Assembly: GCF_964204645.1 (NCBI RefSeq)
Contig: NC_134031.1
Span: 14,805,807-14,869,806 of the forward strand
Source: Tubulanus polymorphus
Taxonomy: Eukaryota > Animalia > Nemertea
Reading direction: 5' to 3'
DNA length: 64,000 nt
Numbering within the stretch: position 1 is the stretch's first letter; the number at the start of each line of letters is the position of its first letter. Under the pieces are notes generated by a model. The model did not search any database and was not told the DNA's origin. It was given only the letters and a program-made list of their open reading frames with translations. This document shows, in pieces, positions 904-31,968 of the stretch. A program made the position numbers and the translations under genes.

Positions 904-11261
<10,358 letters not shown>

Positions 11262-13396: not shown

Positions 13397-13927
13397 TAGC
13401 CTCGCGATTGCTTGCGACTCACAGCGTCGCAGACCGACCAACGCCTGGCTCTACATCCCAGGTGGAATCCATCAACCCATATTCAGAGTTTATTCGTTTA
13501 TTTGTGGGTTTTCGCTTAATTGATATGCAAGACTGAAAAAAATATCAACTTGAGGTATGTCGGCGCCTGAATTGATCACTTTTAAGAATCTTCTTGCAAT
13601 GATAAAGCAATCTATTATAGCAACTTTCTGTTTTATGCAGATGTTTTTGTCAGTCGTGTATGTAAAGTAATTGATTGCATGTGTTCCGCATTGTATTTAT
13701 TAATGGCATGTTGTTGCTCAAATTGTCAACTCACTTTCTGTCACCTTTGTTTTTGATGCGTAGTTTTGTTGCTATGCGCGATGTATGTATAATAATCGAG
13801 ATCTGATTGGTGCCGCAAGTTTTCGTGCGGCAAAGCTGCGCATGTACCTGCGCACCGGTCTAGTGTGGCAGGGGTTCGTGGCAGGGGCTGAGTGTAGCGA
13901 TGCCATCAGGTTCGAATCCCTGCCGTG

Positions 13928-14135
13928 AGTAATAGGGGTTTAGTTGTTCTATACCAAAGGTCGAAAGGTCGAGGTCGAGAAATTTTCCAAAATGTTAAAA
14001 TAACAATAATTTCTACTTGAATTAGTCGCGTACACTCCTAATTCAAGTAGAAATTATTATTATTTTAACATTTTGGAAAATTTATCAACCTCAACCTCTC
14101 AACCTTTGATATAGAACAACTAAACCCCTATTACT
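13928..14135. repeat. Terminal 208-bp palindrome (98-nt arms, 12-nt loop 14026-14037), mirrored at 31619-31826
   Basis: AGTAATAGGGGTTTAGTTGTTCTATA...TATAGAACAACTAAACCCCTATTACT, with 7 mismatches between the arms. Confidence 0.93.
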
Positions 14136-14232
14136 CTATCTAATCACAAGTCTCATCATTTACAAGCCTCAACACGTTGAGTATTGCGTATTACATGTTG
14201 ATTCTAGAACCATCCATCTAGGAAATTACATT

Positions 14233-14566
14233 AGCCAATCACAGTTGAGTATTACGCTAGCCAATCACAGTTGAGTATTTCCAGCCAATCACAGTTGAGT
14301 ATTTTACTATTAATCTATCCAATCACAGTTGAGTATTACTCTATCCAATCACAGTTGAGTATTCCCTATTACACTAGCCAATCACAAGCCTCATAATTTA
14401 CAAGTCTCAACACGTTGAGTATTCCCTATTACACTAGCCAATCACAAGCCTCATAATTTACAAGTCTCAACACGCAGCTTGGTTTTCCCCACTGTTGAGT
14501 AGTATAAATAGGCGGGACTCACACGCGGTAGGACTCATACGTGGCGGGACGCGTTGAGAGGTAAGT
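14233..14566 (+). promoter_or_regulatory. Putative Pol II promoter in the TIR: 7 CCAAT boxes in tandem repeats, TATAAATA (14503-14510), two GGCGGGA motifs, splice donor AG|GTAAGT (14561)
   Basis: CCAATCAC at 14235, 14261, 14285, 14319, 14345, 14378 and 14438. A 60-bp direct duplication spans 14354-14473. The mirror copy is upstream of pPolB. Confidence 0.65.
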
Positions 14567-14932
14567 GTTATGTTCAATTTTAATAAAAAATATAGTATTA
14601 AAATGGAAGCAAATAAGTACTACTGTCCAACATGTAATATCGATATAGATAAATCCCAAAAAGCAAGACACAATAAAACTAAAACACATTTAGAGAATAA
14701 ATTGAAACTAGAATATGAAGATGATATATTCAGAACAGTTAACAAAAGGAAAAAAATTTATTGAATTATGGAATAATGATCCAAATAATGAACAATACGT
14801 TAAGGAATTTGATATCAAGGAATCGAAAGAACTTATCAAAAGCAGCGAGGAATGAAAAAGGATGACGTTGGTCGAAGAAATGGAAGAGGATTCTAAAATG
14901 TTAATCAATTTTAATAAAAATATGTATAATAA

Positions 14933-15718
14933 ATGGAGTCGGAACAATCACAAGCTATAAATATAAACAATAATGGAGTAATAAATATATGCTATAAGAA
15001 ATGTTATAAGTGTGAATTGAATAAATCATTAACAGAATTTCATAATCATAAAAAAACTAAAGATGGTAAAAATTGTTATTGCAAAACTTGTTATAAACTA
15101 TATAATAAACAATATCAAGCAAATAATCCAAATTATTCAACACAATATTATATGGATAATATTGAAAAATTCAAAGTTAGAAATAAACAATGGAGAGAAA
15201 ATCACTCAGATTATATAACAGAATATATGAGAGAATGGAGGGATAATAATAGAGAATATTATAAAGCGTATCAAAATAATTATCAAAATGAAAAATATCA
15301 AACAGATTTTAATTACAAATTGAAAAAATGTTTAAGATCTAAAGTATCAAAATTATTCAGTAAAGAAAACCACTCAGTTACACTAACACATTTATTGGAT
15401 TGTTCAGATAAATTTTTTAAATCATGGATAACATATCAATTCGATGATAAAATGAATATAAATAATTATGGCAATTATTTTCAAATAGACCATGTTTTAC
15501 CAGTTTCGAAATTTAACATGAATGATGAATACAATAAAAAGTTAATTTGGAATTGGAAGAATTTAAGACCTCTTGAAAAGAAGGAAAATATGATTAAACA
15601 TGACAAACTAGATTTACAATTATATTTAGAACAGTTAATAAAAGTAAAGAAATTCATTGAATTATGGAACAATAATCCAAATAATGAACAATATGTTGGG
15701 TCTTTATTGAGTGGTTAA
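14933..15718 (+). CDS. HNH-family (endonuclease VII-like) endonuclease with N-terminal Cys4 zinc ribbon
   Basis: KKCYKC...FH...KDG...YCKTC, then helical Y/W-rich repeats, then FQIDHVLPVSKF...WKNLRPLEKKENMIK. Confidence 0.75.
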   Translation: MESEQSQAININNNGVINICYKKCYKCELNKSLTEFHNHKKTKDGKNCYCKTCYKLYNKQYQANNPNYSTQYYMDNIEKFKVRNKQWRENHSDYITEYMREWRDNNREYYKAYQNNYQNEKYQTDFNYKLKKCLRSKVSKLFSKENHSVTLTHLLDCSDKFFKSWITYQFDDKMNINNYGNYFQIDHVLPVSKFNMNDEYNKKLIWNWKNLRPLEKKENMIKHDKLDLQLYLEQLIKVKKFIELWNNNPNNEQYVGSLLSG

Positions 15719-15967
15719 AGATTAATATATCTCAAATAAAATATAATTAAAAAAACAATAACTTCAACTAGCTAGTGAATTCTATTATATTTTTAATATT
15801 TTCTTTTCAAAAAGAGAATACTTTATATTTTGAATAGATCCGAATAGAAATTCTTTAAATTCAAATAGCTAGTATCAGTAGTCAATACTAGAATTCTTTA
15901 GCTTTAACTAGCTAGTATCATTTGAAGAATACTTATAATATTTTTTTGCTTTTTTTCTCTAATATAA

Positions 15968-16570
15968 ATGTCAAAGAAATCTAATAAGAATAGTATTGAT
16001 ATTGAAAAGACATTAGATGATTTGGGTATAAGTGATAATAAAGATACAGTTGCAACTAATTGTGCTCAAGTTAATAACAATATAGATTATGAATACTATT
16101 TATATTGTAAACATCATCTTGAATTATTAATTGCTGGCGGGAAATCTAAGGACTTCTTAGGAAAAATAATAACTTTTCAAGAACTAGACTCTATGAAACC
16201 CGATAAAGTAATAAAATATTTTAAGATTTATGAAGAGGCAAGATTAGCTAGAATAAACGACTCTATAAGTGATGGTATTGTTAAATGTTATTCAAAATTA
16301 TGTAACCAGTTAATACCAATTGATGATGAAAATAAATTATATAATGATTTGAAAAATGACTATTTAGTTATGACTGAATTACAAAAATGGGTCGGTTATG
16401 CTTCATTTCAATTAGGATCGGTTATGACGTTGATTTCTACTGGTGTCATAACATTTTCGAACATCAAACCTATGGAATATAAATCAGGTAAGAACGAAAC
16501 AGATATACTACAACAAAACGTCGAAACAGAAAATGAATCAGAACAAAAATTAACTAAAATAAATGAGTGA
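15968..16570 (+). CDS. Polinton protein of unknown function (200 aa)
   Basis: Intact ORF with TAAATG start context, a weakly hydrophobic C-terminal segment and an 8-nt overlap with the next ORF. Confidence 0.75.
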   Translation: MSKKSNKNSIDIEKTLDDLGISDNKDTVATNCAQVNNNIDYEYYLYCKHHLELLIAGGKSKDFLGKIITFQELDSMKPDKVIKYFKIYEEARLARINDSISDGIVKCYSKLCNQLIPIDDENKLYNDLKNDYLVMTELQKWVGYASFQLGSVMTLISTGVITFSNIKPMEYKSGKNETDILQQNVETENESEQKLTKINE

Positions 16571-16958
16571 TGGAGTTAAGAAAAAGGCTAGATCCGAGAA
16601 ACAAATTAAATGGGCAAGAGAATTAGGTAAAAGATCATCAGAATTAAAAAAAGCTAAGAAAAAGAAATTAACTGATATAAATGAATCACAGACTTTATCT
16701 GATGATGCCGTACGGCACCCACACGGTAGTATTGATTCAAATAATAATCCATCTAATTCTTCTAATGCTGGAAGTAATTATAAATTATATATTACAATTG
16801 GATTAGTAACAGTTATTATATTATCCGGTGTAATATATAAATCAAAATTCAAATCTGATGATAAATATGATTCCAATGATGATAAACCTATCATACTAGA
16901 AAATAAGTCAAATCATAAAGCCATTGAAACTAAATCTAAATTATTATTAATGGATTAA
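16563..16958 (+). CDS. Polinton small basic protein with one predicted transmembrane helix (131 aa)
   Basis: Basic N-terminus and hydrophobic LYITIGLVTVIILSGVIY. TAAATG start. Confidence 0.75.
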   Translation: MSDGVKKKARSEKQIKWARELGKRSSELKKAKKKKLTDINESQTLSDDAVRHPHGSIDSNNNPSNSSNAGSNYKLYITIGLVTVIILSGVIYKSKFKSDDKYDSNDDKPIILENKSNHKAIETKSKLLLMD

Positions 16959-16964
16959 AATAAG

Positions 16965-18050
16965 ATGAAAAAAGAACAATATTTAAGAGATTTATATTAC
17001 AACCCAGAAAGTGAAGTATCATATTCTAACGTTTCAGAATTATGGGATAAAATTAAATCTGATAAAGAAAAAATAAAATATAGTGAATTAAAATCATGGT
17101 TACAAAATCAACCCACATATCAAATTCATAAAAAGATGGATAAAACTTATTTAACAAGAAAAGTAATGGTTTCATATATTGACCAACAATGGCAAGCTGA
17201 TTTAATTGATATGAAAAACTTAGAAGAATATAACAAAGGATATTTTTGGATACTAAATGTTATAGATATATTCAGTAGATACGCATGGAGTATCCCGATT
17301 AAAAATAAAACTGGTATAGAAGTTACAAATTCTTTCAAATTAATATTTAAAGAAGCTATTCCAGATAAAATACAATTTGATGAAGGTAAAGAATTTTATA
17401 ACAAACATTTTAAAAAACTATTAACTGATAACGATGTAGAATATTTTTCAACACATTCAGATAAAAAAGCATCTATTATAGAAAGATTTAATAAAACATT
17501 GAAAACTAGAATGTGGAAATATTTTACTGCTAATGAAACATATAAATATATCGATGTGTTAGATGATTTAGTTAAAGGTTATAATAATTCTAAACATAGT
17601 TCTATAAATATGAAACCCATACAAGCTAGAAAAGAAGAAAATTCAGAAATAGTTTGGAATAATTTATATGGAGCATTTGTTACACATGATTTTGGAGAAC
17701 CTAAATTTAAAATAGGACAACACGTTAGAATTTCTAAATATAGAAAAACATTTTATAAAGGTTATACCCCTAATTTTACTGAAGAAATATTTAAAATTAA
17801 AAAGATAATATTAACTAAACCATTTGTTTATAAATTGTTTGATTTAAAAGATGAAGAAATATTAGGTTATTTTTATGAACAAGAATTATCATTAGTACCA
17901 AATCCAGATGAAATAGAATACAAAATAGAAAAGGTATTAAAAACTAAAACATTACGCGGTAAGAAATATTCTCTGGTGAAATATAAAGGATATGATGATA
18001 AATTTAATGAATGGATTTTATCTAGTAAAATTAAAAGAATAAATGAATAA
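16965..18050 (+). CDS. Retroviral-like (RVE, DDE) integrase with C-terminal chromodomain
   Basis: WQADLIDM, VIDIFSRYAW, QFDEGKEF, IERFNKTLK. C-terminal YKIEKVL...LVKYKGYDDKFNEWI. Confidence 0.95.
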   Translation: MKKEQYLRDLYYNPESEVSYSNVSELWDKIKSDKEKIKYSELKSWLQNQPTYQIHKKMDKTYLTRKVMVSYIDQQWQADLIDMKNLEEYNKGYFWILNVIDIFSRYAWSIPIKNKTGIEVTNSFKLIFKEAIPDKIQFDEGKEFYNKHFKKLLTDNDVEYFSTHSDKKASIIERFNKTLKTRMWKYFTANETYKYIDVLDDLVKGYNNSKHSSINMKPIQARKEENSEIVWNNLYGAFVTHDFGEPKFKIGQHVRISKYRKTFYKGYTPNFTEEIFKIKKIILTKPFVYKLFDLKDEEILGYFYEQELSLVPNPDEIEYKIEKVLKTKTLRGKKYSLVKYKGYDDKFNEWILSSKIKRINE

Positions 18051-18657
18051 AGATTTATTTATATTTGAACCTCATAATATGTTAGTTACTGGAGTTACAA
18101 ATTGTGGTAAAACACACTTCATATTAGATTTATTAGAAACTATTTATAAAAATCATTTTGATAATATAATATTATTCTGTCCTACTTATGAAATGAATGA
18201 AACGTATAATAGAGATATAGTTTTTAAAGATAAAAAGTTTATTATATTAAATTCTAAAACAGTGAAAGATAATTTAGATAATTGTATAAAAATTGCATTA
18301 GATATTTATAAAGGATCTAATACATTATTTATTATTGATGATTGCACAAATTTACATGATTCAAAAGTTAGAGAAAGTGAGTTATGTTATTTAGCTTTCT
18401 CTGGTAGACATTTTGGGATAACAACATGGGTTTTAAATCAGAAATATAATTCAATTGTGAAAGACTTTAGGGAGAATATAAGATTTCTAGTTTTATTTTA
18501 TAACAAAGATAAAAAATCTATGCAACAATCATTGGAAGAAAATCAAATTATACCTACTGAATTACATGATGAATATATGAATAAATTAAAGAATAATAAA
18601 GGTTCCAAATTACTTATGAGATTACAATTTCCATATGAATATAAATTTATAAAATAA
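18043..18657 (+). CDS. A32-like (FtsK-HerA superfamily) genome-packaging ATPase
   Basis: Walker A GVTNCGKT, Walker B LFIIDD, GRH motif, and Q...REN motif. Confidence 0.92.
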   Translation: MNKDLFIFEPHNMLVTGVTNCGKTHFILDLLETIYKNHFDNIILFCPTYEMNETYNRDIVFKDKKFIILNSKTVKDNLDNCIKIALDIYKGSNTLFIIDDCTNLHDSKVRESELCYLAFSGRHFGITTWVLNQKYNSIVKDFRENIRFLVLFYNKDKKSMQQSLEENQIIPTELHDEYMNKLKNNKGSKLLMRLQFPYEYKFIK

Positions 18658-18673
18658 AATCCTAATTCAAAAT

Positions 18674-19051
18674 ATTATAGAATTCACTGTATACTAATGG
18701 ATGAGTGGATGAATTGGATGAATTGGATGAATTGGATGAGTGGATGAATGGATGAGTGTAATAATATATAATTTACATATGTTTTTTATTTTTAAAACAG
18801 TAAGAGTTTGATTTGAAGTTATTTTATCAATTTTATACTATATTTAAATATTATTTTAATAATATATATATATTGTGTTAAATTTAATAAAGAATATAAA
18901 TATTATATTTATACTCATACTATTCTTCCAATTTATGTGTTAAAAAGTAAAATATATATATTATTATACTCATCCACTCTTCCACTCATCCAACTCATCC
19001 AACTCTTCCAACTCATCCATTCATCCATCAATATACAGTGAATTCTATAAT
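18674..19051. repeat. Central inverted repeat (97-bp arms 18674-18770 and 18955-19051) between the convergent gene blocks
   Basis: The arms align without gaps (10 mismatches). Each has 7 GGAWGAR units and ends ATTATAGAATTCACTGTATA. Confidence 0.9.
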
Positions 19052-19055
19052 CTTT

Positions 19056-20081
19056 TTAATTTTCATTTTCATATTTTTCTTTAAGCTTATTGTATTCTAA
19101 CCATAAATTCCTTTGCATTTTCATTGGTATAGGTCCTAAATGATTCTCGAGTTTATATTTATTGAATGTTTTTCTTGAAAATATTTTTGGAATATAATTT
19201 TCGATTTCAGTTTTAGATGGATGTTTATTTAAAAATTCTCTAAAATCATCATATTTAAGTTCAAATAAGTTCATTGCATAAGTAACATTTGGTTTAAAGT
19301 TATCTAACTTTTTCAATATGGTAACTATATCATTACTCAAGAAATAATCTATAAATGTTTTTCTATACCACCGATAATCTAATATATTCTTATTATTAAA
19401 TTTTGGATTTATAACTGTTGGATTTTCTATTACATTATCTGTACCAATATGTTTAATTGAGTATTTATGATTCAATTGTTTATCATATATTACATATTCT
19501 TTACATTTTTCACACCAAGATTTAAATACTTGTATTGCATGGGCTGAATCATTTCCACCTTTTGTTTTTAATTTATAATGTTTTGCCCAATTAGCCTTTG
19601 TTATACATTCATTACAGAAGGCACAATAATTCTGATCCTCTTTGCATTTATCTTTATATATATTGGCATATGTTTTTACTAATTGTAAAATATGTTCAAC
19701 TTTTTTTATGTGTAATAAATAATCATTATAATTATCAAAATCTTCTTCACAATACATACATCTGATGTTATCTTTTGGTTGAACATTTGATTTTTCTATT
19801 TTAGGTTCAATATTATATTCTATTTTTGTTTCAATCTTATCATCATTCGATGTAGAAGGTATAACATTATCTTCTATTTTAGGTTCAATATTATCTTCTA
19901 TTTTAGGTTCAATATTATCTTCTATTTTTGTTTCAATATTCTTATCTATTTTACTTATTCTATATTTGAATTGATTAAAGTAATCTCCAAAATACTTACT
20001 GTATTCATCATAAGGTAATATATAATATATATCTGATATCATTTCACTTGGAGATTGTATTTCATATATTCCACCTTCCAT
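19056..20081 (-). CDS. Polinton zinc-finger protein with KIEDNIEP tandem repeats (341 aa)
   Basis: CMYC...H...H, CAFC...H and CEKC...H...H motifs. 24-bp coding repeats at about 19790-19940. Confidence 0.75.
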   Translation of the reverse strand: MEGGIYEIQSPSEMISDIYYILPYDEYSKYFGDYFNQFKYRISKIDKNIETKIEDNIEPKIEDNIEPKIEDNVIPSTSNDDKIETKIEYNIEPKIEKSNVQPKDNIRCMYCEEDFDNYNDYLLHIKKVEHILQLVKTYANIYKDKCKEDQNYCAFCNECITKANWAKHYKLKTKGGNDSAHAIQVFKSWCEKCKEYVIYDKQLNHKYSIKHIGTDNVIENPTVINPKFNNKNILDYRWYRKTFIDYFLSNDIVTILKKLDNFKPNVTYAMNLFELKYDDFREFLNKHPSKTEIENYIPKIFSRKTFNKYKLENHLGPIPMKMQRNLWLEYNKLKEKYENEN

Positions 20082-20113
20082 TTATTATATACATTTTTAT
20101 TAACGTTAAAATT

Positions 20114-21361
20114 CTAATACATAACACTATCTAATTGTGAATTTACAATATTTAATTGCGCGTCAGATATAATATAAATATGCATTTTAAAATTTTTGAT
20201 TCCCTTTTTCTTTGTCATGAATAATTGTATTCCATCTTTAGTGTTCTGTAGTTTTTTTCCAGAACCATGTAATAAGTTATCCTCTGTTGTTCTAAAATCT
20301 AACCATAATGCATATTTATTACCGGTATAATAATCAATTTGATTAATGTTACAATTTTCAAATGATTTTACTTTTTCATTCATAAAATGTTTTTTAATTT
20401 CTACCCATTGATCAATCATTCTCATTCCTTGACAGAATATTTTATTTGCTATACCTTCGATAGTTATTTCTACTTTTGTTATTTCAGGATTATAATAATT
20501 ATCAACATTTATTGCGCCATTAGTATACGTTCCAATGGTAAAAAATATTAATATACCTTTAATAGATCTTCTAGGGAAGTTAATATTCTCATTAATTATT
20601 TCATCATTTGCATTAATAGTAACAGTTTTAAATTTATCAATATAATCATATAATAATGAAAACCCTTGATTATATTTAGTTTGAATTATACTTGAAATAT
20701 TTTCATCAGTTACTGTATCATATTCTAAACATATATTCGATAATTTATAACTCATATCTTTAACAACGCTAGATAATACAATTTCATTTACAGGAGCAAA
20801 TTTTATTTCAAATATAATATCTTCTTGAATTGCGTATTTATATAAAGGTGCATTATTATTTATCAATTCAAAATCTAATGGAATTTTATATTTGCTTCCA
20901 TATATACTTTTTATCAATTTATCTACATCATTAGTTAATATTGCGCTATTAGCTTCTGATCTTAATTTATTTTGGTTTTCTGATTGAATTCCTTGAAATA
21001 TCATATTATTTCTATTTTCTTTAGTTAACCATAAATCTTTATAATGCATAAATAAATTATAATCATCTAATGAGAAAACTGTTTCTGGACCAATCTTTAT
21101 TGTTAACTTTTTAATCAAATATCTTCCAACATTATCAACGACATAATTATTATTATTACCGATTACTTTTATATCAGCTGATAAATAAATACTGTTTGGA
21201 ACATAAAAAGTATTTTGTGTTAATCGAGGGATTCTAACATATAAAGTTTCATCAGGATTAATATTAGAAGGGTTATGAGTAATTATATGATGTGATCTTT
21301 CTGCTTTGATAGCATTAGATATTCTAGAAATCTTAGAAGGACTTATATAACTCCCACTCAT
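20114..21361 (-). CDS. Major capsid protein (double jelly-roll), putative
   Basis: 415 aa with beta-rich patterning (TLYVRIP, IKKLTIKIG, LSNICLEYD, NINFPRRSIKGILIFF, YNPEITKVEITIEG, YALWLDFR). Size and context fit a Polinton MCP. Confidence 0.8.
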   Translation of the reverse strand: MSGSYISPSKISRISNAIKAERSHHIITHNPSNINPDETLYVRIPRLTQNTFYVPNSIYLSADIKVIGNNNNYVVDNVGRYLIKKLTIKIGPETVFSLDDYNLFMHYKDLWLTKENRNNMIFQGIQSENQNKLRSEANSAILTNDVDKLIKSIYGSKYKIPLDFELINNNAPLYKYAIQEDIIFEIKFAPVNEIVLSSVVKDMSYKLSNICLEYDTVTDENISSIIQTKYNQGFSLLYDYIDKFKTVTINANDEIINENINFPRRSIKGILIFFTIGTYTNGAINVDNYYNPEITKVEITIEGIANKIFCQGMRMIDQWVEIKKHFMNEKVKSFENCNINQIDYYTGNKYALWLDFRTTEDNLLHGSGKKLQNTKDGIQLFMTKKKGIKNFKMHIYIISDAQLNIVNSQLDSVMY

Positions 21362-21382
21362 TTATTTAACAAAAAAAATTAA

Positions 21383-23077
21383 TTATTTATTTTTTGATAT
21401 CATATTTACTAAACCAAAAATAATAGCACTTACAACCGTAATTAAAAATAAAATAATATGTTCAGCAGCAAAGTTAATAATGTTTCCTGCAGATTTCAAT
21501 ATAAAACCAACAATTGATGCAATAACTCCTGGCAATGCTGCAGCAGATTTCTTTGATAGTTCCCATAAATATTTTGCTAATTTTTTTAAACCATCTTTAA
21601 CTTTATCTTGTATAGAATTATTATCATTCGGGGGTTTATCCGGTTTATTTGGAGTAGGAGTAGATTTCAAAGCATTTGATATTGCTAAACCAATTGTTGT
21701 AAATAACATAGTTACAGCTGTTAGAATTGAAAGAATTGTTATTCCTTCTAACTTAAATAATAATTTTATTCTGTCTTTTAATGATATTTTAGAATTTGGT
21801 TTAATCAACAAATCTTTAAAAATAACTTTTAATCTATTAATATTATAATCATATGATTTTAATAATAATTTAATTTCTTCTTTTTGTAATTCTATGTTAT
21901 ATTCTAAATCATCTTTTTCTTTTTCTAAACGTAATTCTTTTTGCCTATATTCTATTTCATCAATTACTTGATGATCTAAATCAGACTTTAATTGTTCTAT
22001 TTCTTTATTTTTATCAGTTAATTCTTTTTCTAAAGTTCTAATCTTAAAATCTCTTATACTTTTATCATGCGCAATTTTATCAGCTGATTCTTGCATACCT
22101 TTAATTTCTCTACGTGTTTGTTCAGGAAATGCTTCTAATTCATCATCAGTTAAATCAAATAATCCTTTTTCTAGTAAATATTGCAGTCGATTTATTCCAG
22201 TACTATTCATTTCTTCTTCTGAATCACTTAATCTATTAATTTGTTTTTCTAATTGTAATTGTAATTGTAATTGACTTGAATCATTATCAATTGGTTGAGT
22301 GTCTCTTCTCGATGTTTCGGGTGTTGAAGATCTTAATTTATCTAATCGATTTCTATTCTCTTCCATTTCTGGATCAAAATCAGTAGGATTTGGATTTTTA
22401 AATGGTGAATATTTGTTTATATCAATATTAGGAATTGGTTCTTCTTCATTTACTCTATCGAGTGCATTCCATATAATTCTGAGAAATTCTCTACCACCTT
22501 TTGAACTTTCAATTGTAGATGTTGCTCGCATTCCAGGTTCAAAAATATTTTCTTGACCCATTCTAGATAATTGAATTGATACAGTATTCCTATTTAATTC
22601 AAGATTATAATACCATGCATCATTTTTAAATTCTAAATTATTTGTGAAATATGGGTCATCTTTAAAAATTTGTTCTACAACACCTTCAGTATCAATTTCA
22701 TCTATTACAACTTTTGGTAATAGTTCGTTAACAATTGTATCTGTTACTCTAGATTTCATTTTATATAATTCCATAGGTTTATCAGGATATTTTTCTTGTT
22801 GTTTTTCTAATAGTTCCATAAATTCTTTTCTTTCTCTTCTAGTTGAAATTCTACCCCTTTCAGGAGCTTCTGAATATTTATTTAATTTTTCACGTAATTC
22901 GGGATCATCATCATAATCATCATCATAATCATCATCTTCACCTAAATTAGTATTATATGCTGATTCATCATCATTATCAATATTAGTTTCTGCATCATTA
23001 TAATCATCATCAATATATCCTTCATTATTATTTCCCATTTCTCCCATTTCATAATCTTCTCCACCTTCTACATCCAT
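21383..23077 (-). CDS. Polinton acidic/coiled-coil protein with C-terminal hydrophobic and amphipathic helices (564 aa)
   Basis: D/E-rich N-terminus and heptad region, then GITILSILTAVTMLFTTIGLAI, AAAALPGVIASIVGFIL and IILFLITVVSAIIFGLV. Confidence 0.8.
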   Translation of the reverse strand: MDVEGGEDYEMGEMGNNNEGYIDDDYNDAETNIDNDDESAYNTNLGEDDDYDDDYDDDPELREKLNKYSEAPERGRISTRRERKEFMELLEKQQEKYPDKPMELYKMKSRVTDTIVNELLPKVVIDEIDTEGVVEQIFKDDPYFTNNLEFKNDAWYYNLELNRNTVSIQLSRMGQENIFEPGMRATSTIESSKGGREFLRIIWNALDRVNEEEPIPNIDINKYSPFKNPNPTDFDPEMEENRNRLDKLRSSTPETSRRDTQPIDNDSSQLQLQLQLEKQINRLSDSEEEMNSTGINRLQYLLEKGLFDLTDDELEAFPEQTRREIKGMQESADKIAHDKSIRDFKIRTLEKELTDKNKEIEQLKSDLDHQVIDEIEYRQKELRLEKEKDDLEYNIELQKEEIKLLLKSYDYNINRLKVIFKDLLIKPNSKISLKDRIKLLFKLEGITILSILTAVTMLFTTIGLAISNALKSTPTPNKPDKPPNDNNSIQDKVKDGLKKLAKYLWELSKKSAAALPGVIASIVGFILKSAGNIINFAAEHIILFLITVVSAIIFGLVNMISKNK

Positions 23078-23093
23078 TTACATAATAAAAAAA

Positions 23094-24476
23094 TTAAAAT
23101 TTAAAATATAATATTCCTCCGATTACAATTCCTATACAAGTTATAGCTAATTTAGTATTTTCATGGGATTTATTATCATCATTTAGTTTAATTATATCAT
23201 GTTGAATTTTATCAGTTCTATTATTTTCTGATGTATTGTAATCTTTTATTTTAGAATCATTATTTAATTTAATATTATTAGTTTTAGTTTCAGTTGATTG
23301 AATATGTTTTTTATTTTTTTCACCTTCCATTAATTTTGGAGTAGTAATAATGTTTTTATTTATATCATTTAATCCAAATGAATTATTTATTGTTGCAGTT
23401 TTAATTAGATTATTATAACCAATTATATTTCCCATCTTTAATACTAAATCATTAGAAATAATTAATAGATTAGGGCCTATACAATAATTTAATCTAATAT
23501 GTGATTTATCTAAATAATTTTGATATCTTATAATGTTTTCTGGAATCGATCTATTTTTATCATTATGAATTGAATCTTCAAATAAAACTTTAAATTGTTT
23601 TTGTGTATCAAATGATGTATTCTAATTTCCAATTATCGGTGATCTTGTTTCAACTTGTGATCCTAGAATACATATCAAATAAGTTCTAATAGATTGATTT
23701 ATTCTTTCTATACCTGATTTAGTAAAACCTTCACTATTTTCTAAAATAAAATAAACCCAACCATTATTGTTTTCTTGTTTTAAATTATCATAAAATTTCG
23801 GTAATTTATTGAAATTTAATGTTTCTAAATCCTTTGTTTCTATTTTACCATAACCTAATTTATTATTATAGATATTATAAAAACTATTAGATGGTATGGG
23901 AAGTGCACAATATTCTGCAATCTTTTTAGGGCAAGGAAGTGATCTTATTGTTCCAATTTTTGTTCTAAAATCAGAATTATTCATATCTATATTAAATTCA
24001 TTACAAATCTTATAAAACTTAGATAAATTAATATTATTATCCAATTCTTTGAAATATTTAGATCCTGGTAAAGCGCACTCTAATTCATTTAATATTATTC
24101 TGATTTGAAAGTATGTATGAAATCTAAATAAACTTTGAATTAATTTATATTTAGAATTATTCAAATGATCATTCCAACTAATTCCACATCCTGTTGTTGC
24201 ACAATAAACAGCAAAATTTAATTGATTCTGCCAATACTTCATATTAGATTTTAATAACCATTGTTTTTCATCTTTCAATTTTTTAAAATTAATTAAATAT
24301 ACATGAAATATATTTTCCATCTTTGCATTAAAATTATTAGTTTCAGTAACATAAATTTCTAAATTAGTTAATGAATCTAAAACTTCATTTCTATATGTAA
24401 TATCTTTATTAAAATCTATTGCTGGAATATTATATTTAATTGATTTATTATATTGGAAAGCTTTTGGAAACCCCAT
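23094..24476 (-). pseudogene. Single Polinton gene (about 460 codons, C-terminal TM anchor) interrupted by an in-frame TAG at 23622-23624
   Basis: Reading through the TAG gives ...SPIIGN*NTSFDTQKQFKVLFEDSIH...DLVLKMGNIIGYNN..., joining ORFs 23622-24476 and 23094-23435 in one frame with no other stop. Confidence 0.85.
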
Positions 24477-24492
24477 TTATATAACTAAAAAA

Positions 24493-24924
24493 TTAATAAT
24501 TTATTAATTCTTTTAATAATTTATCTTTTTCAACTGTTATATGACCATTTAAACTTATTATATAATCTAGTGTGTTCTTTAATTTATTAATTTCTTTTAT
24601 ATTAGTTTTAATTTTTTCTTTATTACTTTTTATATTTAATTTTGAACTTATACCAGTTAAAACACTTGAACTTAATCCTAATACACCAATTGATATAGCT
24701 AAAGGTGTTAATGGGCTGAATATTGCTAAAAATGTTATTACAGAACTAATTGTAACCGAACCACTTATAATCAAATAATATATAATTTTACTTTTTAAAT
24801 ATTTTTTCTTTTTAACTTTTAAGTCACTTTCAAATTCTAATATTTGTTTTTCTAAATATGTTTTTAATTTAGTTTTATTTATATCATGAGGAATAATATC
24901 AATACTATCAACTTTATCTTCCAT
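24493..24924 (-). CDS. Polinton two-TM hairpin membrane protein (143 aa)
   Basis: IIYYLIISGSVTISSVITFLAIF and LAISIGVLGLSSSVLTGI, flanked by basic coiled-coil segments. Confidence 0.78.
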   Translation of the reverse strand: MEDKVDSIDIIPHDINKTKLKTYLEKQILEFESDLKVKKKKYLKSKIIYYLIISGSVTISSVITFLAIFSPLTPLAISIGVLGLSSSVLTGISSKLNIKSNKEKIKTNIKEINKLKNTLDYIISLNGHITVEKDKLLKELINY

Positions 24925-24943
24925 TTATTTAGAATAAAAATTA

Positions 24944-25366
24944 CTAATTAGTAAACTTATAAGCAACAAATATAACAATAACTGTTCCACCTAAAATCCA
25001 TATTATTTCATATTTTTGTTGTTCTTTACTTGGGGTATAATAATCTGATAATTTAGGTTTGTATAGATGTAATTTTTCTTTATTGGTTACTGCGTTATAT
25101 AAACTCATTGCATCATCAACTGATTGAAAATCTCTATGTGAAATCTTCTGATCATATAATTCTTTATTGATGTAATCCATATAGTTTTGCCTCTTTTCTC
25201 TATATTCTTCTGCAGCTTTATTGTATTTCTCTAACGCTAAGTTATGTCTTCTTTGTTCTCCTAATGAACTATTTTTATCAATATGTTTAAATAAATAACC
25301 ACCACCAGTAAATGCTAAAGCGTTAACAATTGCCGATCCTATAATAGTTATAATTGCAGAAGCCAT
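24944..25366 (-). CDS. Polinton small protein with N-terminal hydrophobic helix and C-terminal TM (140 aa)
   Basis: MASAIITIIGSAIVNALAFTGGGYLF, ExRRHNLALE and IIWILGGTVIVIFVAY. Confidence 0.78.
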   Translation of the reverse strand: MASAIITIIGSAIVNALAFTGGGYLFKHIDKNSSLGEQRRHNLALEKYNKAAEEYREKRQNYMDYINKELYDQKISHRDFQSVDDAMSLYNAVTNKEKLHLYKPKLSDYYTPSKEQQKYEIIWILGGTVIVIFVAYKFTN

Positions 25367-25391
25367 TTATTTAGCAAAAAAAATTATGCAT

Positions 25392-25613
25392 TTATATGGG
25401 AGGAATATATTTTTGTTTTTCCAAATAATCAATAGTTAAATTAGATAAAGTAACTGCTAATGTTAACTTTAAAATATCATTTATATCAAATCTATCAACA
25501 TTAACACTTCCCATTTTGAATACTTTTTTTAATACCATTGAATAACCAACCGTTCCAACTGATAGTAATGCGCCATTATATAATCCAGTTATTATCCACT
25601 TATTATCACTCAT
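25392..25613 (-). CDS. Polinton small hydrophobic protein (73 aa)
   Basis: Intact ORF whose ATG directly abuts the upstream TAA (TAAATG). Two hydrophobic segments. Confidence 0.72.
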   Translation of the reverse strand: MSDNKWIITGLYNGALLSVGTVGYSMVLKKVFKMGSVNVDRFDINDILKLTLAVTLSNLTIDYLEKQKYIPPI

Positions 25614-25955
25614 TTATTTATCAAAAAAATTACTATCATCAAAATATTTAGTTAACTTATTTATGATTAATTCAACATTTATTTCATTACTAGTTTTATG
25701 ATTATCATATATTTTGGTTAATATGTTTTTAATATCATCAATAATTCCATCTTCATTTAATTCATAATATTCTAAAGGTGATTTAATTAAATCAATTACT
25801 TTTTCTATATCATAATTTTCTTTATCAATCATTGATGCATTGTTAAATGATTTACTTTTTATATCAGTAATTACATCATTTAGTTTAATTCTCATTTCTT
25901 TACCATGTTTAAAATCAAACCCAAAACATATACTCGGTCCAACAGTTATATTCAT
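25614..25955 (-). CDS. Polinton protein of unknown function (113 aa)
   Basis: Intact ORF in a tightly packed block with the shared AATTTTT...TAAATG start context. Confidence 0.7.
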   Translation of the reverse strand: MNITVGPSICFGFDFKHGKEMRIKLNDVITDIKSKSFNNASMIDKENYDIEKVIDLIKSPLEYYELNEDGIIDDIKNILTKIYDNHKTSNEINVELIINKLTKYFDDSNFFDK

Positions 25956-25971
25956 TTATATAGGTGAAAAA

Positions 25972-26733
25972 TTACTCTTTACATCTTATAACTAATTCAT
26001 AAATTACAGGAAAGTTATTCAAATCAATTAAGTATCCATTATGATTTCTAATTTCTAATCTAAAATTATTAAAACTAGGAATGCATGGTTTGAAATCACA
26101 TTCTGTTAAATTATAATTTATTTGCGTTCCAAATTCTTTAACATTCTTCAATGGTAAAATGTTTAGTAAACCAGAATTACAAGTTATATCTTTAGTTGCT
26201 TCGAATGTTTTTGTAGGATCGATTAAATTGCAATAAATATAAAAATGTGTGTAAGGTATTAAGTTTGGTGTAGTAGCGTCAATATTTGTAAAAGATCTAT
26301 CTGGAAGAATTCCTAACAGTTTAGCTATAGGTTTTTTTACCATAATTTTATGTTTTTCACTATTAGACAACCTTATCTTTATTCTATCAGAACTCTCACT
26401 TTTTAAAAATCTAATACTAAACCCAGAACTACTACCTAATTTGTGCCAGGCTTTTCTATTAATTTCTTGTGCTAATGTATCTAAATTATATAACCCCGGT
26501 TTTAAATATATATAGACCCATTCATTTTTATTTTTATTAAAAACTAAAAAGACTCTATGTTCAATAGACTTATCCGATACATTGTAAAAAGAATTACATA
26601 AACTTATATTAACTAATTTTAAATCTACACAATTCTTAAATTCTCTATCTAATTGTACTAGTAAATTATGAGATTTATAATTTGTAAGTTTTCTTGAATC
26701 TACAAATATTCTGTATTCTTTTAATTCTACCAT
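25972..26733 (-). CDS. Minor capsid protein (penton, single jelly-roll), putative
   Basis: IFVDSR, FYNV, LKPGLYN, FYIYCNLID, LLNILP and C-terminal FRLEIRNHNGYLIDLNNFPVIYELVIR are typical of Polinton mCP. Confidence 0.8.
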   Translation of the reverse strand: MVELKEYRIFVDSRKLTNYKSHNLLVQLDREFKNCVDLKLVNISLCNSFYNVSDKSIEHRVFLVFNKNKNEWVYIYLKPGLYNLDTLAQEINRKAWHKLGSSSGFSIRFLKSESSDRIKIRLSNSEKHKIMVKKPIAKLLGILPDRSFTNIDATTPNLIPYTHFYIYCNLIDPTKTFEATKDITCNSGLLNILPLKNVKEFGTQINYNLTECDFKPCIPSFNNFRLEIRNHNGYLIDLNNFPVIYELVIRCKE

Positions 26734-26750
26734 TTATTTTACATATTTTC

Positions 26751-27088
26751 TCATTCGAAATCTATTTCATGGTGCCCTTTTTCATTCTTACCTTTGTATA
26801 CGAAATAGAAATCTCCAGAACATAATTCTTCTAGATCTTCACTTGATAATCTATGAAATCTATCTGGTAAATAAGTTCTGAATTTATATGTATTTCCTTT
26901 TAATCCTTCATATTCTAAGTGTATAACTAATTTATCTCCATATTTATTAGTAATTGTTTCAATGTTAGTAATTAAATATTTCTTGTGAATTGTTAACTCA
27001 GTTAACTGAATTTATAATCTACAGATTTGACGCTTGAAGTATCTTTAATTCTATCTAAGAATTCACTGTGTACTTGTTTACTCTCCAT
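26751..27088 (-). pseudogene. Small Polinton gene (about 112 codons) with a 1-nt frameshift near 27011-27013; absent from the ORF track
   Basis: MESKQVHSEFLDRIKDTSSVKSVDYK, then in the -1 frame IQLTELTIHKKYLITNIETITNKYGDKLVIHLE...TYLPDRF...FYFVYKGKNEKGHHEIDFE*. It has a TAAATG start and fills the gap between pPolB and mCP. Confidence 0.75.
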
Positions 27089-27116
27089 TTATTATACAAA
27101 TTTTTATTGAAATTGA

Positions 27117-30100
27117 TTAACACGCCGCTAGAATCCTTTTCATAATCTCATTTTCTTTTGTTTCTTCTCTTTTGAATTTTATATATTCATCTAAATTGCA
27201 ACCATAGGCGACTGTGTGGATTCCATCATCTAAAATATATCTTTTATCATCAAATGGATTCAAACTTATCTTCTCTATCTCTTCAATATACATTTCATGA
27301 TCTTCAGATCTTAAACATTTCATCTTATGTTTTCTAACTTCTTCATTAAATATACAATTGATATAATCTTTGAAATGAATATTCTTTTCAACAACGCTTT
27401 TGGTAATTCCTTTTAACTTTTTAGCTTCATGTTCTTTAGTTTTATATGAATACATTTTAGATCTAATACCAATGAACTCTATCATTTCTTCACCACCTAA
27501 TTCATCCTTAAACTTCCCTGGAACTTTTTTATTATCATTGCTAAACAATTCATGATTTTTAGGATAGTTACTGAAATCAAAATGATGTTTTAATGTTTTT
27601 AAATCATCAGTTATGTTATCAGTTTTTATCTTTAATCTGTAAGAATCTGTATCAAAATATAATATTTCTATGTGTTTTTCTCCAAAATGAGGTTGTAATA
27701 TATTATAATAGAATTCATACATTAGTAATTTTGATAACTCTAAAACTGCAGCTCCAACATAAATCGGTTTATTGAACTTCATAGAAGTTCTTTTTAATTT
27801 AACTGCTGCTAAATTTTCATCGAATATTCTATTACCTATAAATTTCGGATACGATTGTAAATGCCTTATCCTTTTACCATTACTAACTAACTCAATATCA
27901 TTTCTATTTCTTATGTTTTCACAAGTCTTACCATAGAATGCATTATTCATTAGTTTGAAGAAATCTTTCTCGAAATCAGTTTTAGATTTAGTTCTCTGTG
28001 TAGTATTAAAATCTATATATTTTTCTAACCATTTAGATTGACTGAATGAAATATATCTATGTACTTTTTTTAATATCATTCCTTGTCTCAAATAAAACTT
28101 CAACATTCTATAATGCACAACGTAATTATATTTACCTTCTTGAGTTACCATTAACTTTTCAGTATGAATATGATTATCGGGTTTAATTCTTTTTTGATAA
28201 TTTGATAATTCTTCATGTTTAACAGTTTTATGTTCGGGACAGTAAGCTAGATTTCTAGATTTGAATTTAATATTTTCAGGGTATTCTAAATCTACAACAA
28301 AGAAGTAACCAGTATCTGAATCATCTACAATATCTAGGATTCTTTTCTTCCAATCAAATTTATCAATTTGTAAAACTTCAGTTATTTCAAACATTCCATA
28401 AGGTTGTGGTTCCATCATTGCCCAACCATAAAGATTATTTGCATCTATGTATAATAATTTATATCCAGGATTATCATTTACATTGAAATATCTATCACCT
28501 AATACACCTGAAACACCTCCTCTTATAGATTTTTCAAATAATAGTAATTGATCTATATTTGTTAACAAATCCATTTCTATATCTGTAAATTCTAATCCAC
28601 AATCCCATGTTAATCCTGGTGATGAATAACAATGACAAGGATCAATATTGAAATATTTTAGGTTTACATCTCTAAACCTTTCGAATATATCGGTTAATAA
28701 TAATACATCTGATTTTAAATATAAATCTACTAATTGCCCATGATTTTCTATTTTGAAATGATTCCAAATATTCAATGTTCTATTATAGACTTCATCTTTA
28801 ACATATTCATTTTTTAATTCATCATAGAATTGTTCTTTTAATAATTCAGTTATATTAAAATCATTATGATTTTTATAGAAAGAATATGGAATCGCTCCTT
28901 TATATCTCATTAATTGGAAATCATCATTATTTGGGTAATATTCTTTTAATATCTTTAATTCATCATCAACTAATGATTTTGATAAGTTATCTAATGAACT
29001 ACTTAAAAATCTATATGAATCTATAAATCTTAGACAACCAAATTGGAATGATATATAATTCTCAGATGTTTTAGCTAACATTCTAAATTTATAAGTTGGT
29101 ATTTTATCTTTTGATCTATTTGAATTTAATATTTCTATTTCATTATTGATTTCTTCTATTTTATAACATAACTGTTTGATAAATAAATGTGCATCATACC
29201 CCGATAGATTATGAAATATAACTGGTACAAAGTTAATTTTCTTAGCTTGTAAGTTACAATTCTCATGTGCAGCGCCTCTAAACTTTCCATTCAAATGATC
29301 ATGGTCTCTTACTTTTTTATCTTTATAATTAAATATCTTTTCACAATAATAACATTCATCTGCAAACGCAAATTCTTCTTTATCTTCTTCTGTCATTATA
29401 ATTTCTATGTTTTTATTTAACTTTTCATTAAATCTTATTTCATATTCAATTAATAAGTCACAAAAATGATTGATAACATTTTCATTTCTGTAATCATAAT
29501 ATTCACTTTTAATTAGTTCTGGATAATTAGATTTAATATATAACCCGAAAGCTGCAGCTGATTGATGAATCTTTTTAATTGTATTTGTTATTGGTGGTTC
29601 ATCTGAAAAATCATTTTCATTAGAATTTAATTTCTTTCTTTTATAATATATATCTTTTCTATCTTTATCTGTTAATTCTTTATTTAATGATTCAAAATCT
29701 CCATATATTACAAATGGTACTTTATTTTTGTAATCATATTTTTTGAATTCTAATATTTTATCTTTTTCATTTGGTAAAACTAATTTACAATAATCATGAT
29801 TTTCACATAATTGTTTATGATTTAATAATGCACTTTCAGTTCTGAATTTATGTAAACATTTTCTACATAGATATATTTTATTATCAAAATCATTTTCTGA
29901 TTTAAAAAATAAATCAATTCTTTTAATCCACATATAATGATTCTCATAATATAGTATATCTATAACATCATTTGAATCATAATATTTTGATAGGTATAAA
30001 GGTTCTAATGTATAATGTTTAATATTATTTCCTTTTGTATTTGGTAATTTGATTAAATCAAATACATTTATCTTTATATTATTATCTCTTTCTATTTTTG

Positions 30101-31184
30101 GGATGTTTTTAATTCTAACAGGATACTTATCTATCTTATAATTACTTTCAAATGGTTTATAATGAGTTAATCTAAAACTATGTGTAATATCTTCTGTTGG
30201 ATGTAAACAACTTATTATAGCCCATAGAAAACATTTATCATCTTCATTTTGTACGTTTATAACAGCATTAGTTTTAAATGGTAGTTTAATATAACTTGTT
30301 CCATTTATACTATCATCTTTATAATATGATAAATTATTTTCATCAATTGGTTTTGATTTAGTTAACTTATTATATTTTGTGTTATAAACATGTAAAGTTA
30401 TAAATATTATCTCATCAAATATTAAACCAGATCCTTCAAAATATTTCTCTTCTATTTTAGTTTTTACTTCATTATAACATTTATCTAATTTATCATCTAT
30501 ATGTTGTTTAGATATAATATGTTGTGAATGAGAATTTATATTATATATTGGTTTATCTTCAGATTTTATAAACTTTACTTTAACTGATATACTAATTTTA
30601 GGATATTCAACATCTGTAATTATTTTTATTATTTCTTTCATATTTTCTAAATGTTTTTTATTTTCTTCTATTGTTTTACTTTTATGAAATTTAAACTCGA
30701 TAGCTGCTGGACCAATATCACTTTTAAATGCTTCGGTTATTTCTATATCTTTTTTATTATCTAATGAATTAATATAATTTCTTACATCTTCCATGTATGG
30801 TCTTTTATTGTTTAATTTATTTTTTATTCTTTTAATTGTCTTCTGTTTCTTATCGTTATCATTATCAAAATAATCTTCACCTAAAATATCATTATTCTTA
30901 TTTCTAATATGACTTATAGATTTTAAATGTTCTTTATAATATCTTTTATCACTGAATGATTGATTACATGCATCACATTTGTATGCTTCTTTTTCATCCT
31001 TTAATTCTTCTAATTTATTTTCTAATATATCATCTTCATATTCTAGTTTCAATTTATTCTCTAAATGTGTTTTAGTTTTATTGTGTCTTGCTTTTTGGGA
31101 TTTATCTATATCGATATTACATGTTGGACAGTAGTACTTATTTGCTTCCATTTTAATACTATATTTTTTATTAAAATTGAACAT
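27117..31184 (-). CDS. Protein-primed family B DNA polymerase (pPolB) with N-terminal zinc fingers, OTU-like and endonuclease VII-like domains
   Basis: Exonuclease motifs YGDFES, FHNLSGYDAH and RFIDS. Polymerase motifs YIDANNLYGWAM, KLMNNAFYGKT and YFDTDS. Also NEDDKCFLWA...NHY and CYYC...RDHDH...AHENCN. The real start may be the second ATG (31151). Confidence 0.97.
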   Translation of the reverse strand: MFNFNKKYSIKMEANKYYCPTCNIDIDKSQKARHNKTKTHLENKLKLEYEDDILENKLEELKDEKEAYKCDACNQSFSDKRYYKEHLKSISHIRNKNNDILGEDYFDNDNDKKQKTIKRIKNKLNNKRPYMEDVRNYINSLDNKKDIEITEAFKSDIGPAAIEFKFHKSKTIEENKKHLENMKEIIKIITDVEYPKISISVKVKFIKSEDKPIYNINSHSQHIISKQHIDDKLDKCYNEVKTKIEEKYFEGSGLIFDEIIFITLHVYNTKYNKLTKSKPIDENNLSYYKDDSINGTSYIKLPFKTNAVINVQNEDDKCFLWAIISCLHPTEDITHSFRLTHYKPFESNYKIDKYPVRIKNIPKIERDNNIKINVFDLIKLPNTKGNNIKHYTLEPLYLSKYYDSNDVIDILYYENHYMWIKRIDLFFKSENDFDNKIYLCRKCLHKFRTESALLNHKQLCENHDYCKLVLPNEKDKILEFKKYDYKNKVPFVIYGDFESLNKELTDKDRKDIYYKRKKLNSNENDFSDEPPITNTIKKIHQSAAAFGLYIKSNYPELIKSEYYDYRNENVINHFCDLLIEYEIRFNEKLNKNIEIIMTEEDKEEFAFADECYYCEKIFNYKDKKVRDHDHLNGKFRGAAHENCNLQAKKINFVPVIFHNLSGYDAHLFIKQLCYKIEEINNEIEILNSNRSKDKIPTYKFRMLAKTSENYISFQFGCLRFIDSYRFLSSSLDNLSKSLVDDELKILKEYYPNNDDFQLMRYKGAIPYSFYKNHNDFNITELLKEQFYDELKNEYVKDEVYNRTLNIWNHFKIENHGQLVDLYLKSDVLLLTDIFERFRDVNLKYFNIDPCHCYSSPGLTWDCGLEFTDIEMDLLTNIDQLLLFEKSIRGGVSGVLGDRYFNVNDNPGYKLLYIDANNLYGWAMMEPQPYGMFEITEVLQIDKFDWKKRILDIVDDSDTGYFFVVDLEYPENIKFKSRNLAYCPEHKTVKHEELSNYQKRIKPDNHIHTEKLMVTQEGKYNYVVHYRMLKFYLRQGMILKKVHRYISFSQSKWLEKYIDFNTTQRTKSKTDFEKDFFKLMNNAFYGKTCENIRNRNDIELVSNGKRIRHLQSYPKFIGNRIFDENLAAVKLKRTSMKFNKPIYVGAAVLELSKLLMYEFYYNILQPHFGEKHIEILYFDTDSYRLKIKTDNITDDLKTLKHHFDFSNYPKNHELFSNDNKKVPGKFKDELGGEEMIEFIGIRSKMYSYKTKEHEAKKLKGITKSVVEKNIHFKDYINCIFNEEVRKHKMKCLRSEDHEMYIEEIEKISLNPFDDKRYILDDGIHTVAYGCNLDEYIKFKREETKENEIMKRILAAC

Positions 31185-31826
31185 AACACTTACCTCTCAA
31201 CGCGTCCCGCCACGTATGAGTCCTACCGCGTGTGAGTCCCGCCTATTTATACTACTCAACAGTGGGGAAAACCAAGCTGCGTGTTGAGACTTGTAAATTA
31301 TGAGGCTTGTGATTGGCTAGTGTAATAGGGAATACTCAACGTGTTGAGACTTGTAAATTATGAGGCTTGTGATTGGCTAGTGTAATAGGGAATACTCAAC
31401 TGTGATTGGATAGAGTAATACTCAACTGTGATTGGATAGATTAATAGTAAAATACTCAACTGTGATTGGCTGGAAATACTCAACTGTGATTGGCTAGCGT
31501 AATACTCAACTGTGATTGGCTAATGTAATTTCCTAGATGGATGGTTCTAGAATCAACATGTAATACGCAATACTCAACGTGTTGAGGCTTGTAAATTATG
31601 AGACTTGTGATTAGATAGAGTAATAGGGGTTTAGTTGTTCTATATCAAAGGTTGAGAGGTTGAGGTTGATAAATTTTCCAAAATGTTAAAATAATAATAA
31701 TTTCTACTTGAATTAGGAGTGTACGCGACTAATTCAAGTAGAAATTATTGTTATTTTAACATTTTGGAAAATTTCTCGACCTCGACCTTTCGACCTTTGG
31801 TATAGAACAACTAAACCCCTATTACT
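31024..31826 (-). repeat. Right terminal inverted repeat (803 bp), includes the promoter and 5' end of pPolB
   Basis: Reverse complement of 13928-14730. Confidence 0.95.
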
Positions 31827-31968
31827 GCCGTGAAAGGCCCAGTGCACAGATATATGCGCAGCTTGGAGGATGTCGTTACTAACCAATCAGAAATCCCGTT
31901 TTATTTCAAACCGGGTTTTCAACGGTATACATTGAGTAATCTGATAAGATATCACTATCATCAGTTGA

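Follow-up and report, generated by a model that had tools for sequence, protein, structure and literature searches.

A long fold-back palindrome at both ends of an intact Polinton from the nemertean Tubulanus polymorphus

An intact Polinton/Maverick of 17.9 kb occupies positions 13928-31826 of the window (the whole 64,000-nucleotide stretch of Tubulanus polymorphus contig NC_134031.1 that was analysed), and at each end it carries a fold-back palindrome of 208 nt, with arms of 98 nt and a loop of 12 nt, at 13928-14135 and 31619-31826, as an earlier sequence-only reading had described. Public reads of the same species contain related hairpins with other stems and in mixed flanks, which argues against a one-off inverted duplication, and the fold-back is a family trait in T. 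polymorphus. What is new is a long, family-wide fold-back at the ends of an otherwise ordinary and intact Polinton. The hairpin likely helps protein-primed copying of the element instead of serving as the primer itself, since the protein primer appears undamaged and no sign of flipping is seen at the ends.

The element, its genes and its surroundings

The features of the element are as follows, in coordinates of the window.

13922..13927, plus strand: left target-site duplication, 6 bp, identical to the 6-mer at the right flank
13928..14730, plus strand: left terminal inverted repeat, 803 bp
13928..14025, plus strand: outer arm of the left hairpin, 98 nt, the true tip, starting with AGT
14026..14037, plus strand: loop of the left hairpin, 12 nt
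14038..14135, plus strand: inner arm of the left hairpin, 98 nt, a second, internal copy of the end
14126..14493, plus strand: subterminal repeat array with seven CCAATCA motifs
14933..15718, plus strand: ORF of 261 aa with a weak HNH endonuclease match (Pfam HNH_4, E 0.0075, below the curated cut-off)
16965..18050, plus strand: retroviral-type integrase with chromodomain (Pfam rve, E 8e-9, above the cut-off; Chromo, E 2e-4)
18043..18657, plus strand: packaging ATPase, A32-type (Pfam Pox_A32, E 3e-12)
20114..21361, minus strand: double jelly-roll capsid protein (predicted model, pLDDT 85; best Foldseek E 7e-17)
27117..31184, minus strand: family B polymerase, 1355 aa (from motifs and alignment)
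29247..29393, minus strand: HNH / endonuclease VII-type insert in the polymerase (Pfam Endonuclease_7, E 6e-5; motif in 115 of 120 homologues)
29910..30341, minus strand: vOTU protease domain with Cys318 and His416 (viral OTU fold match; conserved residues)
30369..30722, minus strand: terminal-protein domain with predicted linking Ser252 (little-finger fold match; Ser in 76 of 76 rows)
31024..31826, minus strand: right terminal inverted repeat
31619..31826, minus strand: right hairpin (inner arm 31619-31716, loop 31717-31728, outer arm 31729-31826)
31827..31832, plus strand: right target-site duplication, 6 bp

The same 6-mer lies on both flanks, and the 803-bp terminal inverted repeats, with AGT/ACT tips, are identical at 802 of 803 positions, a near-perfect agreement that suggests a recent insertion. 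The polymerase, the integrase and the 6-bp target duplication, which the sequence-only reading had assumed, are all present, and the two gene blocks of the element point inward. Foldseek matched the capsid model to the capsids of iridovirus, PBCV-1 and mavirus. Among the 15 element ORFs of at least 113 aa, Pfam gave no match to an adenain/Ulp1 maturation protease and none to an HUH Rep, and a search of Rfam returned no matches. The polymerase is probably of the Beta or group 1 (adintovirus) type, an assignment that rests on the missing match to PF03175 (available part of PMC8502044), and not on a tree.

The start and the first 54 codons of the polymerase gene lie inside the terminal repeat, and the left repeat opens a truncated copy of 64 aa (14570-14764), upstream of which stand a TATA-like box at 14503 and the seven CCAATCA motifs. 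The ORF with the weak HNH match stands alone and adjoins the left terminal repeat; PADLOC found no match to it. Exactly between the converging gene blocks lies an imperfect palindrome of 414 bp (18656-19069), with 9-nt repeats in both arms and without wobble bias (4 versus 8), which is possibly a two-way 3'-end signal.

On the host side, the element adjoins the end of a repeat of very high copy number (13801-13925; read depth 5,000-10,000 versus about 4) that bears a tRNA B-box-like motif and in which ARAGORN detected no tRNA. ORFs of host type occur at 32588-35254, 37425-38903 and 48075-50899, with ankyrin repeats and a SOCS box, C2H2 zinc fingers, and thrombospondin and immunoglobulin domains.

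The terminal hairpin and its variants in reads

The palindromic unit starts with AGT and ends with ACT, and the right hairpin has the orientation of the left. The two arms differ at seven sites, five with C in the outer and T in the inner arm, one with outer A and inner G, and one transversion; all six transitions form G-T pairs on the strand whose 3' end is the tip and A-C pairs on the other, as had been noted from the sequence. When both strands were folded as DNA, the 3'-end strand reached -89.2 kcal/mol and the 5'-end strand -78.8 kcal/mol, an advantage of 10.4 kcal/mol for the former. The fold has a z-score of about -21 to -24, none of 200 shuffles being equally stable, and its geometry sets the 3'-OH against a template inside the element.

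Public runs of the same species from two studies, as short reads and contigs, were aligned to the end of the element. In run X6, of which about 12% was read, 2819 reads were placed at 88% likeness, and 420 of these run past the tip into flanking sequence, whose agreement of only 0.37 points to many insertion sites. Sixteen X6 reads join 13972 to 14094, and at least eight of them show a different stem of 11 bp, enclosing a loop of 10 nt that is near-identical to the 12-nt loop of the window copy. Single reads span this hairpin of 122 nt, with the same outer arm, the other stem and nearly the same loop, and contigs of run X1, from the other study, contain the same loop-and-stem piece as a loose end. 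A longer form is also abundant: 71 reads connect 14030 with 14033 through a longer insert, the loose ends of which (358 and 402 reads) begin as reverse complements.

A look for compensatory changes had been proposed for other copies. Nine mirrored position pairs were picked among 40 of the 70 variants listed; in seven of them the variants on the two arms are complementary and similar in frequency (e.g. 0.44/0.43, 0.27/0.22 and 0.28/0.24), one coincides with a mismatch of the window copy itself, and for one no partner is listed. As these frequencies are unphased, and could come from reads of one arm that align to the other, the hairpins contained in single reads are the stronger evidence.

The orientation of the ends bears on how they are copied. 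Hairpin replication of the AAV type gives flip and flop ends, independently at the two ends (available part of PMC11575299). Both ends of the present element are in one orientation. Since the arms have no 31-mer in common, an interior with a flipped end attached would split the assembly graph near 14110, assuming contigs built from 31-mers; one X1 contig is unbroken over 14068-14186, with one difference, at a depth of 561 against 623 in the adjoining interior contig (about 90%). The unique-flank contig has a depth of 42.6, and by this depth ratio, a rough measure that rests on summed depth, some 13 terminal copies in X1 are in one orientation and carry the same inner-arm mismatches. The alternative loop orientations that had been anticipated were seen neither at the two ends nor in these roughly 13 copies, in contigs that drop rare variants and may hide a minor flop class, and no tip-to-tip (head-to-head) joint occurs among 15 of the 19 joints listed from short reads and contigs. 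Asymmetric resolution can keep one end orientation, as at the left end of MVM.

Protein priming and a proposed origin of the fold-back

A model of polymerase residues 125-475, built from 76 aligned sequences (pLDDT 83), matched Y-family little-finger domains (Z 8.3, rmsd 2.8, 103 aligned; Z 8.2, rmsd 2.7, 94 aligned) and viral OTU proteases (Z 7.7, rmsd 3.8, 108 aligned). These Z values are middling alone, but the folds are those that define the terminal-protein and vOTU domains in the available part of PMC11071308, whose criteria place the predicted linking residue in the loop that follows the second helix and precedes the last strand. Ser252 lies within this loop and is present in 76 of 76 aligned rows, and the putative protease residues Cys318 and His416 are each present in 75 of 76. 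Exonuclease and polymerase motifs are found as well, and a sequence search of the PDB with the polymerase gave weak zinc-finger matches only. By every sign checked in sequence and model, protein priming appears to have been kept and its module looks intact. The HNH insert was considered as a hairpin-specific resolvase and set aside, as it is general in the clade and occurs in two of five relatives that have no hairpin.

The reading that we prefer, tentatively and somewhat short of calling it likely, is that the fold-back is a copy-back structure which arose by strand switching and has been kept as a local fold-back that aids protein priming or end repair, and not as a routine primer. The protein-primed polymerase of the element would switch strands; synthesis that began at the tip would return to the end by copying it back, and would rejoin the interior at a microhomology of 9 in 10 nt. 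Such an origin fits because the junction between hairpin and interior is in register with the subterminal repeat: the last 10 nt of the inner arm align with the repeat copies at 14364 and 14424 (9/10, then 45/51), and the match of the subterminal repeat to the inner arm ends upstream of those 10 nt. Once formed, the structure would allow a displaced single strand to fold at once into a local duplex end, suited to protein priming and occasional end repair, and would avoid the wait for a 17.9-kb panhandle. If a folded, shortened 3' end were extended now and then, the tip would be restored, and stem changes that are symmetric in both arms could be accounted for, one arm being re-templated from the other. 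This sequence of strand switching, functional maintenance and re-templating is inferred, and the domain folds and the linking serine are predicted.

Work by Esteban in 1997 is said to have obtained short palindromic replicons from phi29 in vitro. Strand switching by phi29 polymerase is cited in the available part of PMC5910420, and that of PMC11886824 treats panhandles as the usual explanation of how displaced strands are primed and ends repaired, and describes direct evidence for them as lacking even in PRD1 and adenovirus. Against the preferred reading, a panhandle could already be made from the 803-bp repeats, leaving no need for a local one, and distant relatives with the same type of polymerase manage without a hairpin (none at eight ends of five elements). 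Moreover, the arms are evidently not re-templated often, since the seven mismatches are common to about 13 copies.

The G-T bias between the arms had been taken as evidence of selection for a hairpin on the 3'-terminal strand. The bias is real and suggestive only. Its chance of 1/32 was computed correctly, but the two ends are one sequence, to be counted once, and the six changes are perhaps not independent. A C-to-T change always yields a G-T pair on the strand where the change occurs, and deamination on one strand gives the same pattern, so that the bias fails as proof of such selection. Five of the six transitions lie in the inner arm as C-to-T on one strand, three of them at the three CpGs of that arm, and if the direction of change follows the AT pressure of the element (9.5% GC at four-fold sites), all six read as C-to-T on the 3'-end strand, where one clustered deamination event would explain them. 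Counted post hoc, the inner arm lost 5 of 11 such cytosines on the 3'-end strand versus 0 of 21 on the other. Selection for a fold-back of the 3' strand is expected under protein priming too, and the bias cannot separate protein from hairpin priming, as the 3'-end strand is used in each. Control palindromes were without wobble bias (0 of 6 others in the window and 0 of 28 at other loci; smallest p 0.375), most of them having few transitions and low power. Simple strand-displacement deamination was rejected as a source of the changes; it would longest expose the 5'-end part of the displaced strand, which is the opposite strand to the one affected.

A clustered deamination is part of a second explanation, which we regard as rather unlikely, whereby recurrent copy-back accidents produced the hairpin as a neutral by-product and homogenisation of the terminal repeats spread the tip to both ends. 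The one-strand pattern of the transitions under AT pressure, with the loss of all three CpG positions in the inner arm, is in keeping with this, as are the microhomology at the junction and the absence of the hairpin from distant relatives. What it leaves unaccounted for is that the loop motif and the pairing persist across stems of differing length and sequence. Nor do the surroundings point to such a process: CpG is not depleted in the host flanks (o/e 1.31 on the left, inflated by a CGT repeat, and 1.04), the outer arm retains its three CpGs, and the four-fold sites (G 57, C 48) lack a strand bias from which the pattern would be expected.

It had also been suggested that the palindrome itself could move as a mini-element. 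Worked out in full, which we consider decidedly unlikely, this would make the hairpin a self-contained unit of two Polinton ends joined head to tail, multiplying on the polymerase and integrase of the Polinton and capping the full element. The AGT start and ACT end of the unit and the single reads that span the 122-nt form are in its favour, and hairpin ends are in surplus. Depth is about 1200 at the hairpin centre versus 250-290 just inside and about 4 in the unique flank, and of a summed arm-end depth of about 1040 only 289 (28%) runs on into the interior of the repeat, against 50% expected if every hairpin capped an element. This corresponds to roughly 260 arm ends and 73 interiors, a surplus of about 116 ends, figures that are rough since the unique depth of about 4 comes from another individual. 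The surplus may consist of solo units, of diverged Polintons, or of ends that share the first 45 bases only, 214 reads leaving at 13973. The 64-kb window contained no solo copy flanked by a 6-bp duplication, and scans of sequence collections for the end pattern gave chance matches only: none in viral contigs, four in metagenomes, without hairpin and without Polinton genes, and one in prokaryote genomes, a bacterial record without palindrome. A separate palindrome of 205 bp at 6255-6459 has AGT...ACT tips, is unrelated in sequence to the Polinton end and lacks a 6-bp duplication; it may be the decayed remnant of a solo unit from a different family.

The mini-element reading is compatible with the preferred one. 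A broader proposal, unlikely if not markedly so, is that of a minimal Polinton satellite. Here a self-complementary replicon of 120-290 nt, formed from two ends joined by strand switching, would be copied by the terminal-protein polymerase and inserted by the integrase at a number of sites of the order of one hundred; it would now cap the autonomous element, fold-back extension repairing the ends and keeping the arms matched.

Routine hairpin self-priming of the parvovirus type, as first proposed for this element, with the 3' end folding back and being extended and an HNH nuclease (the insert or the stand-alone ORF) resolving the closed end, is permitted by the geometry, by the better folding of the 3'-end strand and by the two HNH-type candidates, both putative nickases, is in line with symmetric stem changes that require arm-to-arm copying at some time, and has been proposed in print for elements of Halocafeteria (available part of bioRxiv 10.64898/2026.07.28.741278), but it is the most improbable of these explanations, neither new nor supported as a routine route, given intact terminal-protein and vOTU residues, one orientation at both ends and in about 13 copies where the AAV type would give flip and flop, an HNH insert that is general among homologues and present in relatives without the hairpin, and no HUH Rep among the ORFs scanned.

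Relatives and comparable systems

Relatives that are 78% identical exist (P0002-P0004), but the 33 related loci found with their DNA context are all distant (26-41% identical); a search with the single polymerase and a capsid alignment yielded none, and a close-clade alignment gave only 22 that were already in the set. Five of these 33 elements had ends that could be examined, and at none of the eight ends does the tip recur inverted within 400 bases; only three of the five have typical tip motifs, so that some may not be true ends. The terminal fold-back is not general for this type of polymerase. One distant relative (L011 / G002; L039, L040) has 123-bp end repeats composed of AT-rich units that occur in both orientations, and these repeats show a loose internal fold-back; its contig ends may not be true tips.

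In most respects the element agrees with Polintons/Mavericks as described in the available parts of PMC8097293, PMC8502044 and PMC11071308: the size, the long terminal repeats with AGT-type tips, the 6-bp duplication, the integrase, the ATPase, the double jelly-roll capsid, the TP-vOTU-Exo-palm polymerase and the two inward gene blocks are alike. It differs in that each terminal repeat opens with a fold-back of 208 nt, which contains the end sequence a second time, and in that its 15 ORFs gave no maturation protease by Pfam. The strings 'palindrom' and 'hairpin' are absent from the available text of PMC8097293, as is 'palindrom' from that of PMC10748475, PMC6431247 and 10.1101/2025.02.07.637071.

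On terminal palindromes in the Polinton/virophage group, a single preprint was found in the literature as far as it was available. In its available part, bioRxiv 10.64898/2026.07.28.741278 describes palindromes that lie within the terminal repeats of Halocafeteria seosinensis virophages and of one PLV subtype, proposes hairpin priming, names accidental annealing as the alternative, and ties the palindromes mainly to non-pPolB elements; its supplements may list pPolB cases. The two systems are alike in having a palindrome within the terminal repeat that adjoins the target duplication. There, however, it measures 52 nt (subtype 5) and accompanies mostly non-pPolB replication genes, whereas here it measures 208 nt, occurs in several stem lengths and belongs to an animal Polinton with an intact pPolB.

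Two better-known systems offer partial parallels. The hairpin telomeres of AAV and parvoviruses (available part of PMC11575299) are likewise terminal palindromes whose 3' end can pair on an internal template, but the present element has no Rep that was found, a simple stem and not a T shape, no flip or flop seen, and an encoded protein primer. Adenovirus, PRD1 and phi29 (available parts of PMC11886824 and PMC5910420) resemble it in self-complementary ends that restore a duplex origin on the displaced strand and in polymerase strand switching; here, by contrast, each end of an integrating element has its own local fold-back of 208 nt.

A direct demonstration of how Polintons start and finish copying was not found in the literature as available. 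The present element is a counter-case to the view that palindromes belong mainly to elements without a protein-primed polymerase, as it combines a long fold-back with an intact animal Polinton in which the protein primer appears to be kept. If the satellite proposal is true, Polintons would mix protein priming with hairpin-templated synthesis, and if solo units exist, the ends of Polintons would be linked to palindromic satellite elements. Moreover, natural stem variants within one species provide material on which protein priming, hairpin priming and end repair predict differently, in the orientation of the ends, in a protein linked to the 5' end and in the occurrence of solo copies.
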